Below are positions 44,205-64,000 of a DNA stretch of 64,000 nt, piece after piece. The position numbers were made by a program, and so were the translations under genes. Source of the stretch: Macrostomum lignano (taxonomy: Eukaryota); contig NIVC01000995.1 of NCBI GenBank assembly GCA_002269645.1, positions 324,100-388,099 on the forward strand, read 5' to 3'. Position 1 is the first letter of the stretch. The number at the start of each line of letters is the position of its first letter. The notes under the pieces were generated by a model, which was given only the letters and a program-made list of their open reading frames with translations, made no database searches and was not told where the DNA came from.

Positions 44205-49418
<5,214 letters not shown>

Positions 49419-49509
49419 GCCTGCTGCAACCGGAAGGATTGGCATAAATCCCACCTAGTAGTGCTCTAGTGCTTAGGTATGAGCACAGATAATATAATGA
49501 GTGAACGCA

Positions 49510-53241: not shown

Positions 53242-53409
53242 ATGGGCCTATTAGGTCTTAGGCTATATAGTGTAAAATCCATTTGAAAATCTATAGTAGC
53301 TATACCTAGGACTCTAGGGCCTTAGAAAGGTAAGGTATCAAAATCCTTGGGATAATGGCTTAACTTTCTTATGCTCATATTATATTGTGGGCCTAACCCT
53401 AGCTAGTAG

Positions 53410-54273
53410 TGATGTGTTCCTTATTACCCGACTTTCGATAATCAAGGAACAATCACTTCTAGCTCAACAGCTAGGCAACCCAGTAAGTCAAACGAAGGTA
53501 TTCAATTACCTTTAATCCGGATTTGAATTTCTTGAGTAGTTCTCGCTAGGAACTTGTCAGTAGATCTCGTAGATCAGGCGCCTTGATTCTTCAGTTGCTC
53601 TGGTCCTGGTTCCTCTTGTACTTCCGATAAGTTCTTCCGGCCGGTATCTTCCGTCAGGACCAATCAGAGGCCTCGTAGCAACAATGGGTACCCTGCGCCA
53701 AACTGCGGTCTAAATTAAGCCTCCTTCTTCTAGCAGTGCCTCTATGCACTCTAGGTATAGCTCCGGAAACCACTGATAGTCCTCTAAGATCTATCAGGGG
53801 CAGTCCTTCTGGAGACTGCAACCAATGGAGTCTAAACAGACTCAAGAGTCTCAACAGACTCAATTAGACTCAAGTCTCAATAGACTTGAGCGAGACGTCT
53901 CTAACACAACGGGCGCAAATAAGGAAGGCTTACCGCAACAACTCGACCGAGTCTCGATTGACTTGGTAGATCAGGAAGTCCTCCTAAGGCTTCCTCTTCG
54001 GAGCGCTCCTCTTCCGTGGGGAGAATGGCTCCGGTACCGCTTCAGATCGCTTGTATTTATAGACAAGTTTTTGATCCAAAATAGTATCATGACAATTCAC
54101 GTGTTGCGCTAAAAGGGGAAAATGGCTCATGGCGTATTATTCTGGTAACATCTTTTTCTGGTAGCGTGATTCATTCAAAGCTTAGGCGCACATGCGTGTA
54201 CTTACTTACTTATAGTAGTATTATACGATTATCTTCTTTTTTCCTTTTTTAACGGGAGGTAGAACACTCTACA
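53410..54273 (-). repeat. 3' LTR (864 bp)
   Basis: Matches 63138-64000 by eye except for a 1-nt indel in a T-run. Starts TGTAGAGTGTTC and ends GAACACATCA on the - strand; TATAAA lies at 54056-61 (-). Confidence 0.9.
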
Positions 54274-54277
54274 AAAT

Positions 54278-54288
54278 CTCCCTTTTTT
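54278..54288 (-). other. Polypurine tract candidate
   Basis: AAAAAAGGGAG, 4 nt upstream of the inferred 3' LTR start TGTAGAG. Confidence 0.6.
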
Positions 54289-54453
54289 ACGAAAAAACTC
54301 GTCCCGAGTTTTAACAATAAAATTCTGTGGTGATCAGTTAATATAGGAAATAAACAATTGATTTTGTGCGCGTCTAGTGAAGCGAGGGTTTGGTCAAAAC
54401 TCTAAAAACTTTTCAGTACATATTGCGGTCAAAACTCGAATATCGCGTAGACA

Positions 54454-54828
54454 TCAAGTGGCATCAGGTTTGATCCGACACCACTTTCGAAACGTGCAGT
54501 CTCGCGGCATACTATTACATAAGGGGCATCCTATAACGCCCCTACTAGCGGTTTGCTTCAAACAGTGCATGCAAATAAAATGTTGGTGGTTACAATATTG
54601 AAACGTGCGCCAAGAATAACAATAGGCACATTGTCGCAAACTATCTCTACAGAGGGGACAATTCTGCCATGGCTGAATATAATGTGAATCGCTTAAACAT
54701 TGTCCGCAAACTTTATGTTCGTTGATGCAAATAGTCGGTGGCTTGACAGCCAAGTCATCAGTTAAACATATCGGGCAGTCATATAGCTGCTGAGGCTGGG
54801 GCGCCTGTTTTGACAGTGCGTTGCCCAT
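54454..54828 (-). CDS. Retroelement accessory protein: N-myristoylation motif plus two RING fingers (124 aa)
   Basis: The first ATG (54828; A at -3, G at +4) gives MGNALSK; the track's start at 54840 is a TTG. Two C-x2-C...C-x3-H-x2-C-x2-C...C-x2-C motifs follow. Lies between pol stop and PPT. Confidence 0.8.
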   Translation of the reverse strand: MGNALSKQAPQPQQLYDCPICLTDDLAVKPPTICINEHKVCGQCLSDSHYIQPWQNCPLCRDSLRQCAYCYSWRTFQYCNHQHFICMHCLKQTASRGVIGCPLCNSMPRDCTFRKWCRIKPDAT

Positions 54829-54948
54829 AATTGTCGTCAATTTGTCGCTGTCTTTGTGTCGCTCGGATTAGTCGCCTTTTACGACAAGCTTGCGAAGCTG
54901 TAGTGCTATTCTTTATCCCGGTCACTACACGGGGTTGTTCTCTAAACT

Positions 54949-57900
54949 CTAGCGTGGTCGTAGGTTGTAGCCATGTGGCTGGCTCACATCTGTCGTTTGA
55001 GTCTCCTCGTGCTTCGTCGCGATGTGGCGGTTCGTTGAACGCGTGCGATCAGCGTTGTCTAATGTCGGTAGAAACGTCGCTGTGTCAGTGTTGATCTTCT
55101 TTAGTCGATGAATGTGTACGTAGAACTGGTGCTGATGTGGATCTTGTACATTAGCCAGGCGTGCCGTTGTTGGTGACGTTAGTTGGACCACTCGATAGGG
55201 TCCTTTGTACTTCTGTGCATGTTTATGCGTCTGCTGTGGCGGGTAGTGTAGGTAGACGATGTCGCCGGCCGTCAGGGTTGTCGATCTCGCGTCGTTGCCG
55301 GTGGTCAGAGCCACCTGGTTGTCAATGTTGTGCTTGGCGATCTTCCATGCGAGGTGTAGTTGCGTGACGAATTTCTGAATGGAAGTCGGTACTTCCACGT
55401 ACTGCGATGGTAGCAATTGCTGTGCGAGCAGATTCGGCGGTTGGAAGTCTCGTCCAAACATTAGGAAGAATGGCGTATTGTCCGTTGATCGATGAATAGC
55501 GCTGTTGTAGGCCATTGTTACAGATTGCAGGTAGATGATCCAGTCTTCCGGCTGTTGGTGCGCGAAATGTGTAATCATCTCGTGCAGGTTGCGGTGAAAC
55601 CGTTCAACCATGTTTGCCTTCGGATTGTAGGTCGATGTGTAGATCTGCGTAATGTTGAGAATCCTTACGACTTGCTGAAACAGTTGCGATGTAAACTGCG
55701 ATCCGTTGTCCGATGTGAGGTTCTTCGGCGTGCCGTACTTGCAAATGATTTCGTTGAAGAAACTCATTGCCACTGTCTGAGCTGTGATGTCCGGTATCGG
55801 TATGGCGATAGCAAACTTCGAGAAGATATCCAAGGCGGTTAGAATGTAGGTGTAGGCGATGCCCTGGAGACAGCTCGGTGGTAGCGGTCCGGTGATGTCG
55901 ATGCTTAGACAGTCCATTGTAGTCGACTTCGGAATGGACTGTAGCTGCGGTTTCTGTCGTCGTCCTGTCTTTGATGCAGCACATGAATGGCAGTTGTTGC
56001 AATACTGCTTGATGTCGCCGTACATAGTTGGCCAAAAGTAGTATTGTTCCACTCTCGCGATGGTCTTTGCTGCCGACAGGTGTCCAGCGAGTGGGTTGTC
56101 GTGTAGCTCGTTGAGAATTGCTTGCCGAAACGAATATGGTATGTAGATCTTGGGTTTATTGTCGCTCATCCAGTAGAGCCGTGACTTATTGATTGTTAGG
56201 TGTTGTCGTTGCTTGCGTAGGAATTTTCGTTCCATGGGACTGAGTTTGATGTTCTTGTCGTCGTCTTTAACCGCTTGGTAGAAGTTGTCGCGCTCGGTTT
56301 CATCCACCAACTCCTTGATGTTAGGGATTGGATGAATGGCGTTGACTTCATAGGCTCTTGACAGGGCGTCCGCGGCTTTGTTGGTAATTCCTGGTTTGTA
56401 GACGAGTTTGTAGTTGTAATCCTGGATCTTGAGTGTCATTCTGATGAGTCGGTTGTTGGTCTGTCCTTTTGTAGTTACGACGTAGGTCAATGGTGCATGA
56501 TCCGTGCGTACTATCGTCTGTATTGGAGAACCATAGATGTAGTAATGAAACTGTCGCAGGGCGAACAAGACTCCTAGTAGCTCTCGTTCCGTAGCTGACC
56601 ACTTTGTCTCATTTGGTTTGAGTGCTCGACTGACGTAAGCAATAGGTCGTTCCTTCTTGTCCTCGGTTTCCTGTAGTAGGACTGCTCCGAGTCCCGTTCC
56701 TGAGGCGTCTGTCTCGATGATGAAGGGCTTGTCGAAGTCCGGATGCTGTAGCAGTGCGTCTGATGTCAGCTGTCGTTTGATTTCGTCGAAACTTTCCTGT
56801 TGTCTCTGTGTCCAGTTGTCTTGCTTCCATTTGTCGAACTTGAGCAGGTCGTACAGTGGCTTTGCTGTCTTTGCGAAGTTAGGTAAGAACTTCCTGAAGT
56901 ATTGCGCAAGTCCAAGGAATGATTGGACCTTCGTTATACTGGTTGGCGTAGGAAACTTCTTCACCTTTTCCACGTTGTCTGGGTCCGGTGAGATTCCTTT
57001 GGCTGTCACCTGATGTCCCAGGTAACGCACGTTGTCTCGGAAGAATTTGCATTTAGTTGGTTGTAGCTTCAGACCTTGGCGTTGAATGAGCGCTAGGGCC
57101 TTCTCCGTAGCTTCGTAGAGTCGCTCGAAATCCTCTCCGTAAGCTAAAATGTCGTCGACATAGTGCAGCAGGTTCGTGCATCCTGCTAGCATGTATGCTG
57201 TTAGTCGACTCATCGTTGCTGGGCTGTTGCTAAGTCCCATCGGCGATCGATTGTACTCGTATACTTGTCCATTGTAGGTTTTGAAAGCCGTGTACTGTCG
57301 TGACTCTTTCTCGATTTCAATTTGCCAAAATCCATGACGTAGGTCGAACACCGTGAACAATTTTGCCGTGTTGAGCTTTGCTAGTAGTTCGGAGATCTTC
57401 GGTAGGCTTTGCTGATCCGTCGGTATGTACTTGTTCAACAGTCTGAAGTCGCATACGAGTCGTCTTTCGTTTGTCTCCTTCTTCTGTACCAGTAGGCACG
57501 GTGAGGAGTAAGCCGAAATAGCTTTGCTGATGATGCCGTGCTTTAGCATTTTATCGATGATTTCGTCAAAGTGTTGTTGCAGATGCTTGGCGATCGGGTA
57601 CGGCTTGCACTGAATTGGTTCCGTGTGCGGCAGAAGTTTGATTTCCTGTTTGATGTCCTTGGCTCGTCCGATGTCGTAATCATGATGGCAGAAGGCTTCG
57701 TTGTACTTCCACAACAGCTGTCGAACTTTCCTCTTTTGCTGTTCCGTAATCGGGCTGTCATCCAAATTGATCTTCTTTTGAAATTCTTCCTCTGTTAGTC
57801 GTGGAGTCGCTTGTTCAATCAGCATAACCGATGCTTGGGTGTTGAGATGACCGATGCACATTCCTTGTCGTAGATGAACCGTTTCTGTGTTCGGGTTGAA

Positions 57901-60648
57901 GATTTGTACTGGCAGTTGCTTATCCTTTGCAACCAGCACTAGTGCCGTAGGCATCATGATTTGATGTTTTGCCGTGACTCTCCTGTGTGGATCAAATATC
58001 ATTGCTTCATCTGCCGCGCTGGTCGTTTTCGCTCTGACCCAGCATGCGCTTTCAGGCTGGATAATGACATCTTGCTGCAGAGTTACTTTCGGTAGTACTC
58101 GAATCTGGTTGATCAGCGGTTGCTCCACCGTGTCGATCCTAAACGTTTGCTTGTTGAAGTCGAAGGTCAATGGTAGTTGAAGCTGCTTGAACGTGTCGAT
58201 TCCAACGATGACGTCTTGGTTTGGTAGTCTGTCGATGATGTACGTCGGGACCGTCAGCTGTTTATTAGCAATTTTCAAGTCGATATCTGCTTTTCCTAGG
58301 ATGTTGAGTGAATGTCCTCCTGCTCCTGCAACTGCGATTGCTGCTGGTCGTACCGCGAGTCGTAGCTTGTTGCATAATTGTTGCGAGATGACTGTGATCG
58401 AGCTGCCTGAATCCAGTAGTGCTCGACATGGCAAGTTGTTGACAATGACCTGAGCCATTGCTTTGCCAATCTCGGCGTGTAGCGTACAGACGTAGTTTTC
58501 CGGCCATTTTGGCTCGTGCTGTTCTGCTTGATAGTTGGGTGGTTGTATCCTTGGTGCCGTTGGTGTTGTCGGAATCGATGGATATAGCCGCGTTGCTAGT
58601 GTCGGTTGCCCTTGAACCTCACAATGTGCAGTTTCTGTTAGTTCTAAACTGTTGTCGCTTTCCGTTGTCGTTCTTTGCATTATGGCATTCACTGTCTTCT
58701 TAGCTCTTGGACAAGTTTGACTGAAGCACCGTACGATCGATGAAATGATGAAGATTGCCGTGACAATCCACACAATGCAAGCACCGTAGAAGATGAATCC
58801 TTGATAGAGACTGCCTCTTCCATTGAGCAGCTCCCAGAAGCTATTTGTCCAAAATGATTTGATGGCGCTGTCCATTGAAACAAGGACGGGAAATCTTCCT
58901 GTCCCGGTTCCTTTGTCCTTTCTTGTGAACAGCTGGTGAATCATCTTGCGTTGGGTGATGAACGCTTGCAAGAAGTCGTTGATCGTCCATCCTGGTGTTA
59001 TCTCGTCAAGTTGGATATCGGCGAATGGCGTATACTTCGTTCTGTTGAATCGGATTTTCAAATCCTCCATGTCGTAGTTTTCGTCGACGATTACTTCCGG
59101 TTCTGTGACGTTTGCTGTCGTTCCAGTTGTTTTGATGACGTGTAGTGCATTGTCCAGTTGATAGTAGTTTACTGCCGTGGTGCAAGGTCTCGGTATTGCG
59201 GTGCCAACGATGATGTTGTGTACCGTGTCCAAGAATCCCTGAATTCGTTTTCCTTCGTAGAACGCTTCAATCCTTGGCTTATCGTAGCAGGTTGTTGACG
59301 TGTTTGACGGCAAGATGTTAAAGTGCTGTATCGGCGTGCACTTGTATATCAACAGATGCTCGTATATTGGAACTGCCAAAACGTTCGTCATTCCGGTGAT
59401 TTTACGAAAAGTCATCGTAGGGTTGACATAGTAGTTTTGTCTGGCATAATTTAAGTTGATTGCGTGCATTTTGCAAGTTAGCTGGACCAGTGTTCGATGC
59501 AAGTGGTTTAACTGGTTGTGTAGATTGTGATCCAAAGCCGTTATCTTTGCTGACAACAGCCGGTTTGACACCAGTTTGGGACGTTCGATGTCACGTCGTC
59601 TTCTATTCTGTTTTTCTTGTTGCTGATACGTTCCATTGATGATTGCCAAGAAGGTTTGTTTGTCTTCATCCTTTACGTAGACTGGTATCTCTTGTTCCGA
59701 GATGAATAGTGTCTTGTCTGTATCCTTGCATTTCAGTTTTTGCTCGACTGGTTTCTTTTGAAACGTCAGTGCCAAGTCTCCTGACTTTGCCAAAAACGTA
59801 TTTGACAGTAGTCCTCCTTCAACTGTGTGATACTTTTGAAGCTTGCAGTCAATTTCCGGCTCAACTTCCCACGCGAAGAAGTATTGTCGTGATTTGTACG
59901 GTTCCTCATAGTGTGATTGTGCTCTGTGCTCAATCTGCCATCGATAGTCTTGATGATATGTTGGACTCAGTGGTAGACTGTGTAGTTCTTCCTTCCGTAG
60001 AATCGGCGTTGGACACCATCCTTCACTGTATCGACATTCGCTTAGTTGCAGCTGTAACGATTCCATTTTCTCGTACGGATTGTAGTAGAATGGAATATTT
60101 CTGATCAAGTAGCTGTTGCGTGCCATATATTCTTTCCATTTTCCGAAGAAGTGAATATATCGACCGTTGGCTGAATTCTTTGTTCTGAACAGCTGTGCGT
60201 TGCCGACCTTCTCATCTGGTTCCAGTTCACCATCCTTTGAAAATAGTGTTTGATTCCATTGTAGGCATTCCGCGTGCGACACATGTAGCTCATGTTGTTT
60301 AAATCGGATCCGGTTCCATTGTCCGCGCCAAACTTTTTCCACCAGGTGCTTGTCTCTGAAGCATACTATCCCGTGTTGTCGATGCTTCTTGATGTTAGCC
60401 TTGTAGAGATCGAGTGTAATCTTCTTTGGTTTTGTCTGGTTTGTCTTGAAGTAACTGCATTTGATGTCGGTTGGTATCTTGTAGATCATCGGTTGGATAT
60501 GCGCATCCGTTGGACAAATCATTGGCTTTTCCGTTGCCGTTGCTTTGGCGACTACTGCTATCAGTAGTATCACGATGATCCAGAATAGCCAGTTTTTCCA
60601 CTTCTTGGATTTTGCCGTTGTCCTTGCTGCATTGGCTGCGATCGCCAT
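54949..60648 (-). CDS. Env-Pol polyprotein (signal peptide, class III-like glycoprotein, TM, protease, RT, RNase H, integrase), 1899 aa
   Basis: Uninterrupted ORF. Signal peptide WLFWIIVILLIAVVAKA; furin RRRR|D aa349-352; TM aa617-639; LLDSGS aa744-749; YVDD aa1163; DAS...ERE...DH RNase H; H-H-C-C zinc finger, IDITGP, SDNGSQF, VERFH and GPY integrase motifs; C-terminal YNLRPR. Confidence 0.95.
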   Translation of the reverse strand: MAIAANAARTTAKSKKWKNWLFWIIVILLIAVVAKATATEKPMICPTDAHIQPMIYKIPTDIKCSYFKTNQTKPKKITLDLYKANIKKHRQHGIVCFRDKHLVEKVWRGQWNRIRFKQHELHVSHAECLQWNQTLFSKDGELEPDEKVGNAQLFRTKNSANGRYIHFFGKWKEYMARNSYLIRNIPFYYNPYEKMESLQLQLSECRYSEGWCPTPILRKEELHSLPLSPTYHQDYRWQIEHRAQSHYEEPYKSRQYFFAWEVEPEIDCKLQKYHTVEGGLLSNTFLAKSGDLALTFQKKPVEQKLKCKDTDKTLFISEQEIPVYVKDEDKQTFLAIINGTYQQQEKQNRRRRDIERPKLVSNRLLSAKITALDHNLHNQLNHLHRTLVQLTCKMHAINLNYARQNYYVNPTMTFRKITGMTNVLAVPIYEHLLIYKCTPIQHFNILPSNTSTTCYDKPRIEAFYEGKRIQGFLDTVHNIIVGTAIPRPCTTAVNYYQLDNALHVIKTTGTTANVTEPEVIVDENYDMEDLKIRFNRTKYTPFADIQLDEITPGWTINDFLQAFITQRKMIHQLFTRKDKGTGTGRFPVLVSMDSAIKSFWTNSFWELLNGRGSLYQGFIFYGACIVWIVTAIFIISSIVRCFSQTCPRAKKTVNAIMQRTTTESDNSLELTETAHCEVQGQPTLATRLYPSIPTTPTAPRIQPPNYQAEQHEPKWPENYVCTLHAEIGKAMAQVIVNNLPCRALLDSGSSITVISQQLCNKLRLAVRPAAIAVAGAGGHSLNILGKADIDLKIANKQLTVPTYIIDRLPNQDVIVGIDTFKQLQLPLTFDFNKQTFRIDTVEQPLINQIRVLPKVTLQQDVIIQPESACWVRAKTTSAADEAMIFDPHRRVTAKHQIMMPTALVLVAKDKQLPVQIFNPNTETVHLRQGMCIGHLNTQASVMLIEQATPRLTEEEFQKKINLDDSPITEQQKRKVRQLLWKYNEAFCHHDYDIGRAKDIKQEIKLLPHTEPIQCKPYPIAKHLQQHFDEIIDKMLKHGIISKAISAYSSPCLLVQKKETNERRLVCDFRLLNKYIPTDQQSLPKISELLAKLNTAKLFTVFDLRHGFWQIEIEKESRQYTAFKTYNGQVYEYNRSPMGLSNSPATMSRLTAYMLAGCTNLLHYVDDILAYGEDFERLYEATEKALALIQRQGLKLQPTKCKFFRDNVRYLGHQVTAKGISPDPDNVEKVKKFPTPTSITKVQSFLGLAQYFRKFLPNFAKTAKPLYDLLKFDKWKQDNWTQRQQESFDEIKRQLTSDALLQHPDFDKPFIIETDASGTGLGAVLLQETEDKKERPIAYVSRALKPNETKWSATERELLGVLFALRQFHYYIYGSPIQTIVRTDHAPLTYVVTTKGQTNNRLIRMTLKIQDYNYKLVYKPGITNKAADALSRAYEVNAIHPIPNIKELVDETERDNFYQAVKDDDKNIKLSPMERKFLRKQRQHLTINKSRLYWMSDNKPKIYIPYSFRQAILNELHDNPLAGHLSAAKTIARVEQYYFWPTMYGDIKQYCNNCHSCAASKTGRRQKPQLQSIPKSTTMDCLSIDITGPLPPSCLQGIAYTYILTALDIFSKFAIAIPIPDITAQTVAMSFFNEIICKYGTPKNLTSDNGSQFTSQLFQQVVRILNITQIYTSTYNPKANMVERFHRNLHEMITHFAHQQPEDWIIYLQSVTMAYNSAIHRSTDNTPFFLMFGRDFQPPNLLAQQLLPSQYVEVPTSIQKFVTQLHLAWKIAKHNIDNQVALTTGNDARSTTLTAGDIVYLHYPPQQTHKHAQKYKGPYRVVQLTSPTTARLANVQDPHQHQFYVHIHRLKKINTDTATFLPTLDNADRTRSTNRHIATKHEETQTTDVSQPHGYNLRPR

Positions 60649-61368
60649 TCGTTATCTTCCATGTCCGCATCATATTCTTTCGGTTGTTCCATTGGCTGAT
60701 CCAGGCGGAAGGCTTCTGATTCGCTTTGCTTTTTGGTTATTTCATTATCTTCGTCTGCGGCTTCTTCCGATGTTTCCGTGTTTCACTCCATTGCGTTGTA
60801 TCTTTTCTCTGTCTTGTAGTCGACCGTTTGAATATAGGCTTCACCATTTCGTTTGTATCGGATCTCGTAGCATCGTCGCTGTCGGAACTCGCTTTCTTTT
60901 CACCTGTTCTTTTCCATTTCTTCATCTTTCCATTGTATTTCGTAGCCTTGATCGCTGTCGGAACTTAGATTCTCCGCTCCGGTTCTTCCTGCATTCCTCT
61001 TTCGGCTTGGTAGTCGTTCGTGTCATCACGCACCTCGCAGTCGTGGTCGTTGCCGTAACTTCTACATTCTTCTTCTTCTTTCATTTCTTTGTCTTTCATG
61101 CTCGTTTTGTCGTCATCCACTGTTGTCGATTCATAGTTGTTTTCTTCGCCGGTTTTCATCTTTTCTTCGTTGCCGATGTCGCTCTCCGCCTCCTCCCTTG
61201 TCTTGTGATTTACTTTCTTCCTGTTTTCTCTGCTGTCTCCGGTGGTCTCTTTTAATTTGATCATTTCGTTTCATCGTCTCTTCTGTTTGTCAGTGTTGTC
61301 CTCGTGCGTCGTCTTCTTTTCGATCAGCTGATGTCAAGTTCCGGACTGTGAAGTCCATTTCCAAGTCG

Positions 61369-63117: not shown

Positions 63118-63135
63118 GAGAGGGCGAGATCACCA
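63118..63135 (-). promoter_or_regulatory. Primer-binding-site candidate
   Basis: TGGTGATCTCGCCCTCTC begins 2 nt after the 5' LTR ...CA; cognate tRNA not identified. Confidence 0.5.
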
Positions 63136-63137
63136 AT

Positions 63138-64000
63138 TGATGTGTTCCTTATTACCCGACTTTCGATAATCAAGGAACAATCACTTCTAGCTCAACAGCT
63201 AGGCAACCCAGTAAGTCAAACGAAGGTATTCAATTACCTTTAATCCGGATTTGAATTTCTTGAGTAGTTCTCGCTAGGAACTTGTCAGTAGATCTCGTAG
63301 ATCAGGCGCCTTGATTCTTCAGTTGCTCTGGTCCTGGTTCCTCTTGTACTTCCGATAAGTTCTTCCGGCCGGTATCTTCCGTCAGGACCAATCAGAGGCC
63401 TCGTAGCAACAATGGGTACCCTGCGCCAAACTGCGGTCTAAATTAAGCCTCCTTCTTCTAGCAGTGCCTCTATGCACTCTAGGTATAGCTCCGGAAACCA
63501 CTGATAGTCCTCTAAGATCTATCAGGGGCAGTCCTTCTGGAGACTGCAACCAATGGAGTCTAAACAGACTCAAGAGTCTCAACAGACTCAATTAGACTCA
63601 AGTCTCAATAGACTTGAGCGAGACGTCTCTAACACAACGGGCGCAAATAAGGAAGGCTTACCGCAACAACTCGACCGAGTCTCGATTGACTTGGTAGATC
63701 AGGAAGTCCTCCTAAGGCTTCCTCTTCGGAGCGCTCCTCTTCCGTGGGGAGAATGGCTCCGGTACCGCTTCAGATCGCTTGTATTTATAGACAAGTTTTT
63801 GATCCAAAATAGTATCATGACAATTCACGTGTTGCGCTAAAAGGGGAAAATGGCTCATGGCGTATTATTCTGGTAACATCTTTTTCTGGTAGCGTGATTC
63901 ATTCAAAGCTTAGGCGCACATGCGTGTACTTACTTACTTATAGTAGTATTATACGATTATCTTCTTTTTCCTTTTTTAACGGGAGGTAGAACACTCTACA
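63138..64000 (-). repeat. 5' LTR (863 bp visible; ends at the window edge)
   Basis: Copy of 53410-54273; flanks diverge immediately outside TGATGTG. Confidence 0.9.

Follow-up and report, generated by a model that had tools for sequence, protein, structure and literature searches.

Tandem double-RING genes behind pol in a Macrostomum lignano errantivirus, a cassette of candidate accessory ubiquitin ligases

Introduction

The usual view of Gypsy-type elements is limited to gag-pol(-env), and counter-defence in invertebrate errantiviruses is a largely open subject. The window analysed here, a stretch of 64,000 nucleotides from the flatworm Macrostomum lignano, contains a minus-strand open reading frame (54454-54828, 124 codons plus a stop) that starts with MGNALSK and encodes two RING motifs within a retroelement. 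What does an LTR element do with such a protein? A sequence-only reading of the window had offered two answers, a matrix substitute resembling the arenavirus Z protein, or a membrane-bound E3 ligase countering host defence or superinfection. The analysis below places the frame in its element and gene family, and weighs a ligase role against its alternatives.

The host element

The frame belongs to a 10.6-kb minus-strand LTR element with LTRs of 863 nt, which are identical to each other bar one indel, indicating that the element is young. Its parts, in window coordinates, are:

63138..64000, minus strand: 5' LTR (863 nt, TG...CA), matching the 3' LTR bar the one indel; the contig ends at the LTR's first base
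63784..63789, minus strand: TATA box candidate in the LTR, from its motif only
63124..63135, minus strand: primer-binding site (PBS), at the same place in a supplement row of PMC13524379
61369..62427, minus strand: gag frame (capsid-like DUF1759, CCHC knuckle), without an N-terminal Gly
60652..61368, minus strand: acidic gag-env linker, its frame broken in the assembly copy and continuous in other copies
58744..60588, minus strand: env, with signal-anchor, class III-type ectodomain with an RRRR site, and second TM helix (PF24664, hydropathy, PMC13524379 typing)
58531..58587, minus strand: late-domain-like motifs LYPSI, PTAP and PPNY in the tail between the Env TM helix and the protease (motif scan)
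54949..58452, minus strand: pol, with protease, RT (YVDD), RNase H and integrase, in frame with env (translation, Pfam)
54277..54288, minus strand: polypurine tract (PPT; sequence)
53410..54273, minus strand: 3' LTR (LTR pair comparison)

Downstream of gag, a single frame of 1,900 codons runs from signal-anchor through glycoprotein, TM helix, protease, RT and RNase H to integrase, and in four loci the frame is already open at the Gag knuckle and continues across env as far as RT. Compared with the window, contigs from all four public sequencing runs have small indels in the gag-env linker, so that the window's frame breaks probably reflect assembly errors or changes private to this copy. Env matches PF24664 with E 3.5e-5, under the Pfam cut-off, and has two TM helices by hydropathy. 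The three late motifs fall within 19 residues of its tail; among 19 distinct Env tails, PTAP is present in 18 and PPxY in 16, with PTAP placed elsewhere in two distant relatives, and shuffling the tail gave both motifs at once in 55 of 100,000 trials.

LTRs, PBS, PPT, a PR-RT-RH-IN order and a gB-type env between gag and pol are all present, as in GAG-ENV-POL errantiviruses of the Ty3/Gypsy group, and the element is the catalogued Mlig_errantivirus_2, whose row in the supplement of Chary and Hayashi (PMC13524379) matches it in LTR positions and PBS, types its env as ENV_HSV (gB-type) and gives 16 copies. Assignment to the Kuafuorterviruses, described in the available text of PMC11673190 with an IADD/VADD/LADD RT motif and a length of 5-6 kb, was rejected, given the YVDD motif and 10.6 kb of this element. 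The RING frame had been said to occupy the usual place of env; it does lie between the pol stop (54949) and the PPT and 3' LTR, but an env exists upstream, in frame with pol.

Three features were noted in the surroundings. A 256-codon antisense frame (60485-61255, plus strand) lies over the acidic linker, is open in several copies too, and is probably a shadow of the purine-rich strand. Exons of the host DNA primase large subunit (46012-49454, minus strand; PF04104 E 1.7e-35 for 46012-46383) lie about 4 kb from the element, and positions 1-50400 contain dense minisatellite arrays with unit lengths of 8-44 nt.

The RING gene family

The RING frame is divided as follows:

54454..54828, minus strand: RING-A ORF, 124-aa truncated allele (translation, comparison with sister alleles)
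54808..54828, minus strand: MGNALSK myristoylation-type start, clade-specific (tree and N-terminus comparison)
54649..54777, minus strand: RING1 (C3HC4, P-x-C-R linchpin; Pfam, PDB profile match, alignment)
54517..54630, minus strand: RING2 (C3HC4, without the linchpin Arg; alignment, profile searches)
54356..54453, minus strand: remnant of the C-terminal-domain coding region past the stop, with the remaining RING-A and all of RING-B missing (75% DNA identity to the RING-A coding sequence of locus L059)

The frame, its MGxxxS start and both RINGs with the ligand spacing first read from the sequence are all borne out. Zinc ligands are spaced 2-12-3-2-2-12-2 in RING1 and 2-8-3-2-2-11-2 in RING2, which begins six residues past RING1, and the double-RING pattern was found in none of 100,000 shuffles of the 124-aa protein. 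A contig from public run X1 is identical to 54252-54771 with zero differences, establishing that the short form is real and no assembly error.

In full, the gene encodes a 222-aa protein consisting of RING1, RING2 and a helical domain, and the window ORF is a truncated allele of it; the gene is the first of one to three tandem paralogues behind pol. A 222-aa RING-A together with a 210-aa RING-B is found in copies with a pol 100% identical to that of the window, and relatives at about 81% RT identity have two or three tandem RING genes. In the window type RING-B is missing and RING-A has lost its end, stopping after codon 124 where sister alleles stay open. Compared with the 222-aa type, its first 106 codons have a dS of 0.09 and the next 18 codons a pS of 0.83, indicating that the window allele is a recombinant. 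The paralogues are about 20-27% identical, and across 21 sequences the 16 zinc-ligand columns show little or no variation.

The genome contains at least 151 RING-gene matches, ranging in identity from 100% down to about 30% (150 of 212 candidates scored, 150 listed). Counted by eye among the 150 listed places, 16 have the 124-aa frame, 7 a 144-aa form and about 20 a stop near codon 71, some of these places being duplicated loci; the same 3' flank (window 53402-53409) recurs in G000:C2447 and C2065, which marks them as duplicates, so that copy counts overstate independent insertions. Among 69 loci fetched, 58 have a RING match, and 57 of these 58 also have element markers. The exception, in L019 (2523-4031 and 8099-8381), is an isolated RING-A fragment near an intronless ORF that by eye is cytochrome P450-like. 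Beyond this genome, a profile search of 1.8 billion proteins returned three distant full-length relatives and two partial ones, none starting with MG, together with one gene model of the same family; word-indexed homologue searches returned nothing besides the query, and scans of viral and metagenome contigs found no relative.

Some loci have unusual arrangements. Nested whole and partial copies, on one strand per array, occupy G000:C2121 1-70000, C1130 1-50000 and C87 228000-285000 (L041-L056), and may be self-targeting nests or piRNA-cluster-like loci. A pol-less derivative (L013, L014) has gag, part of env and the integrase tail in one frame, with two intact RING genes; its RING-A frame occurs at about 8 of the 150 listed places. 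In L015 (1-9500) and L024, a retroelement 3' end with three RING genes is joined to a Polinton-like element, with neighbouring ORFs that we take, from weak Pfam matches, to be capsid-like, A32-like ATPase and penton-like. A Polinton origin of the cassette, with the RING genes as Polinton cargo, was rejected: PPT and LTR mark this stretch as the 3' end of a retroelement, and its junction lies within a Polinton ORF.

Domain structure of the RING proteins

The CCCHCCCC ligands are present in 20 of 21 aligned rows for RING1 and in 19 of 21 for RING2. In RING1 the Pro and Arg of P-x-C-R are found in 21/21 sequences, with Ile or Val at position 20 in 18/21, and after RING2 the Arg is found in 0/21. 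A linchpin Arg in P-x-C-R is the usual sign of active E2~Ub priming. The best PDB matches of the family profile are RING1B, TRIM21, TRIM5 and SIAH1 (E 4e-6 to 3e-5, among the best 60 of 101), and Sina_RING (PF21362) is matched by 23 of 26 family members, past the cut-off in 1 of 9 RING proteins. For the 124-aa protein itself no Pfam RING family reaches its cut-off. These E3-RING profile matches and the linchpin Arg of RING1 fit the membrane-bound E3 option of the sequence-only reading.

Sina/SIAH proteins have a C-terminal beta-sandwich substrate-binding domain. No such domain was found here: an AlphaFold model of a natural full-length allele of 222 aa (pLDDT 87, pTM 0.79) has only helices in its C-terminal part, and no Pfam family of the beta-sandwich kind is among the matches of the 26 members. 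For this helical C-terminal (WPxP) domain no relative was found, and the Atlas gave no usable match. A single-sequence model of the 124-aa protein has a pLDDT of 36. The fold search proposed as a check for Z likeness matches generic E3 RINGs over residues 13-65, weakly (best Z-score 5.2); arenavirus Z is not among the rows listed, which alone excludes nothing. Overall, the RING proteins look like ubiquitin ligases directed at host proteins.

The N-terminal motif

A loose myristoylation pattern is found at 9 of 1,429 ATG starts in the window, and MGxxxS/T starts 26 of 83 distinct family ORFs. In a tree with several long branches, from which P0155, a near copy of P0007, was left out, all MG starts group in a single clade within RING-A, with support 100/99, and they are absent from the outgroups and all paralogues. 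Among 10 distinct N-termini of the clade, Asn3, Ala4 and Ser6 are invariant, Gly2 is present in 9 and position 7 is Lys or Arg; Ser6 is encoded by all four TCN codons. We take this comparison to mean that selection keeps the motif within its clade, with the caveats that Gln11 is just as invariant and that a codon-level test confined to residues 2-7, which is underpowered, was not significant. We read the MG start as a selected, lineage-specific predicted anchor gained in one clade, and not as a family trait.

Selection and cassette exchange

In 11 whole-gene pairs, which share history and are not independent, dN/dS is 0.09-0.28 in nine and dS is saturated in two, with Fisher p<=6e-4 for all. 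Selection in other copies had been proposed as the check on the sequence-only reading, with disruption there, or a host fragment free of purifying selection, as the result that would count against it. The outcome is purifying selection on a protein-coding RING gene; many copies, including the window's, are truncated, but the gene family is clearly under selection. No positive selection was detected over the whole gene, all pairs having dN/dS<1. An arms race might give positive selection, and its absence is counted against a host-targeting role.

The dS of RING-A far exceeds that of the adjoining integrase in some pairs (3.8 against 0.58 in one, 0.55 against 0.04 in another), which shows the cassette being exchanged between backbones. 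Cassettes with 74% identity in RING-A and 60% in RING-B sit on elements with 100% identical RT and 94% identical Env, and thus the cassette does not co-vary with the polyprotein.

Expression

Two features are relevant to expression:

63376..63661, minus strand: splice donor and matching in-LTR intron position (LTR alignment, X1 contig)
54868..54934, minus strand: conserved non-coding block with a candidate YACAG acceptor (AG at 54899-54898), common to the 6/6 subfamily representatives shown; role inferred

The donor at 63661 lies 128 nt past the TATA candidate and is identical in 56 of 56 aligned LTR matches. The X1 contig departs from the window at 63662 and picks up again in sister LTRs, 261-284 nt beyond, at an AG acceptor. 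The genome was not found to contain this joined form; sister LTRs with the same donor are spliced in run X1. No run listed is on record as RNA. CAG lies immediately 5' of the ATG at 9 of 10 RING-B starts, which are partly close kin, compared with 50 of 1,692 background ATGs (3%), and at none of 5 RING-C starts. In gene model P0005 the LTR leader is fused at the donor straight to the RING-B Met; no donor-to-RING-A joint is among the 8 joints listed. These splice signals suggest subgenomic mRNAs starting in the LTR.

A joint between 54934 and 59816 (X1, X3) was rejected as a splice: it is non-canonical, and the adjacent loose end matches the pol-less L013 type. The 67-nt block at 54868-54934 is near-constant between subfamilies whose synonymous sites are saturated, and may be an acceptor, a packaging signal or a template-switch hotspot. 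The 125 nt upstream of RING-A fold no better than shuffles (z -0.33).

Proposed role of the cassette and alternatives

We consider it rather probable that the cassette consists of accessory ubiquitin ligases, one of them membrane-anchored, acting in trans on host factors. Genomic RNA would be translated into a single Gag-Env-Pol polyprotein, as the observed architecture indicates; its two membrane helices would thread it through the membrane, with Env tethering Gag and Pol, and the Env tail would bring its own ESCRT motifs for budding. The one to three genes behind pol would be read from spliced RNAs starting in the 5' LTR, a step for which donor use is seen in the sister LTR, RING-B splicing is taken from a gene model and motifs, and RING-A splicing is presumed. 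The full protein would be a RING-type ubiquitin ligase, with RING1 binding E2~ubiquitin, RING2 as its structural partner and the helical C-terminal domain picking the substrate. The myristoyl anchor of one RING-A clade would direct the ligase to membrane proteins. The likeliest task would be the removal, in trans, of host restriction, silencing or receptor proteins. With action in trans it would be understandable that young subfamilies still spread despite repeated loss of cassette parts, and the numerous subfamilies with a truncated RING-A indicate that the cassette is dispensable in cis. The window's 124-aa allele, which retains the anchor and the RINGs and has lost the probable substrate domain, is probably a passenger.

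A fuller version, which we offer tentatively and think less likely than not, is that of an invertebrate 'complex retrovirus': a budding errantivirus whose one membrane-threaded polyprotein has all three kinds of ESCRT late domain in the Env tail, and whose spliced 3' cassette encodes a new family of self-contained ligases, one myristoylated. These would degrade receptors, restriction factors or piRNA-pathway proteins of the host, and subfamilies would exchange them as a common counter-defence module. With a RING cassette of several genes, under selection and carried by a young element in a tractable laboratory flatworm, counter-defence becomes testable, and the substrates of the ligases would name host anti-retroelement factors. 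The family further contributes a protein domain for which no relatives are known, and the element a polyprotein design in which Env supplies both membrane tethering and budding motifs.

The ligases could instead act on the element's own proteins, ubiquitinating or sorting the membrane-bound polyprotein for processing or ESCRT budding, or limiting self-superinfection. The myristoyl motif of one clade, the membrane-threaded polyprotein with its PTAP and PPxY motifs, and the pol-less derivative, in which both RING genes are still intact beside gag and part of env, are in keeping with this; it is nevertheless unlikely, since the cassettes vary between elements with the near-identical RT and Env described above. 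Somewhat less likely again is that the proteins are non-catalytic zinc-finger adaptors, serving as regulators of RNA export or transcription or as decoys titrating host E2/E3 partners. RING2 without a linchpin, the conserved RNA block just upstream of RING-A and a C-terminal domain without recognised relatives suit adaptors, but the P-x-C-R of RING1 is invariant in 21 sequences.

A Z-like matrix substitute, that is, a myristoylated RING protein lining the membrane and driving budding, we regard as very improbable. The MGxxxS start is kept by selection in its clade and Gag has no N-terminal Gly of its own, and RING2 alone, searched against the PDB, does match LCMV Z (E 0.052, rank 2 of 21 behind TRIM32; Lassa-type Z chains 0.55-2.4); the Atlas, too, lists a Z cluster, at 0.87 and rank 17. 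The weak match of RING2 favours the sequence-only reading, but is lost with profiles: Z is absent from all 21 matches of a RING2 profile of 7 orthologues, and from the best 60 of 70 matches of a RING2 profile of sixteen paralogues. The Z family zf-P11 (PF03854) matches 0 of 26 members at E<=1 and is not among the 21 families matched (the Pfam check of RING2 lists 25 of 27 matched families); none of its 22 weak genome matches falls at the 150 listed RING places, and the best of them, three of the 22 having been inspected, fall in exons of ordinary RING genes of the host. The spacing of RING2 also differs at three of seven intervals from that of Z (2-9-2-2-2-10-2, read off the LCMV Z alignment). 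Z itself, as described in the available text of PMC3509680, has a single RING with YxxL inside it, late domains of the P[T/S]AP or PPxY kind at its C-terminus and a length of 90-99 aa, whereas the full RING protein has 222 aa, PTAP, PSAP and PPxY are found in none of the 83 distinct family ORFs, YxxL is absent from the 124-aa protein, and the late domains lie in the polyprotein. In addition, the MG start is absent from relatives and all paralogues, and copies with truncated forms spread. Neither kinship with Z nor a matrix role is supported by Pfam, profiles, spacing or the late-domain scan, and the retroelement RING genes do not link retroelements to arenavirus Z.

Equally improbable, and already largely refuted for the family, is a recently captured, decaying host gene fragment: the truncated window allele, the many broken copies and the Sina/SIAH-like RING1 are compatible with it, but strong purifying selection, three old paralogue groups, distant full-length relatives and the lack of a host-type locus among the 58 inspected, bar one fragment, leave it true at most for truncated alleles.

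Comparison with known systems

What is already known is the element, its gene order and extra ORFs behind pol as a kind (PMC5408684, available text). The GAG-ENV-POL order is known from Platyhelminthes, Nematoda and Bryozoa (PMC13524379). The description of Mlig_errantivirus_2 in that paper concerns the same element, but the RING cassette is not mentioned in the parts available: RING, zinc finger, accessory and ubiquitin do not occur in the main text (figures aside), nor RING, zinc, accessory and ORF4 in the seven supplementary files. No description of a double-RING cassette was found in the literature, including the available text of PMC13524379, PMC6431247, PMC5408684, PMC12801592 and PMC11673190, though Repbase, subscription papers or supplements may annotate the ORF.

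The giant planarian Gypsy elements Burro and GYPSM1 (PMC6431247, available text) likewise have env in frame between gag and pol, and also carry apoptosis- or ubiquitin-related domains, namely MATH, BIR, SUMO-like and an AIR1 match with a RING Zn-finger. By contrast, the Burro domains are parts of a 4,900-aa polyprotein or of an ORF upstream, and tandem double-RING genes behind pol are not described in that text. The ORF3 cargo of bdelloid LTR retrotransposons (PMC5408684, available text) resembles the flatworm cassette in comprising non-env ORFs behind pol, typically with spliced messages, but encodes a GDSL esterase, a DEDDy nuclease, or TM or coiled-coil proteins, with RING, zinc and ubiquitin unmentioned there.

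Arenavirus Z (zf-P11, PF03854) shares with the flatworm protein its small size, the Gly2 motif and a compact C3HC4 RING weakly like RING2, whereas the flatworm protein has two RINGs, a different spacing and a helical third domain, and lacks late motifs. With the RING E3s of cells and DNA viruses (Sina/SIAH, RING1B, TRIM21; herpes ICP0; NCLDV RINGs) it has in common C3HC4, the C-x3-H spacing and the linchpin Arg, and it differs from them in its second RING six residues on and in the unmatched WPxP helical domain. In function, the cassette is presumably analogous to ICP0 or to lentiviral Vif/Vpu.
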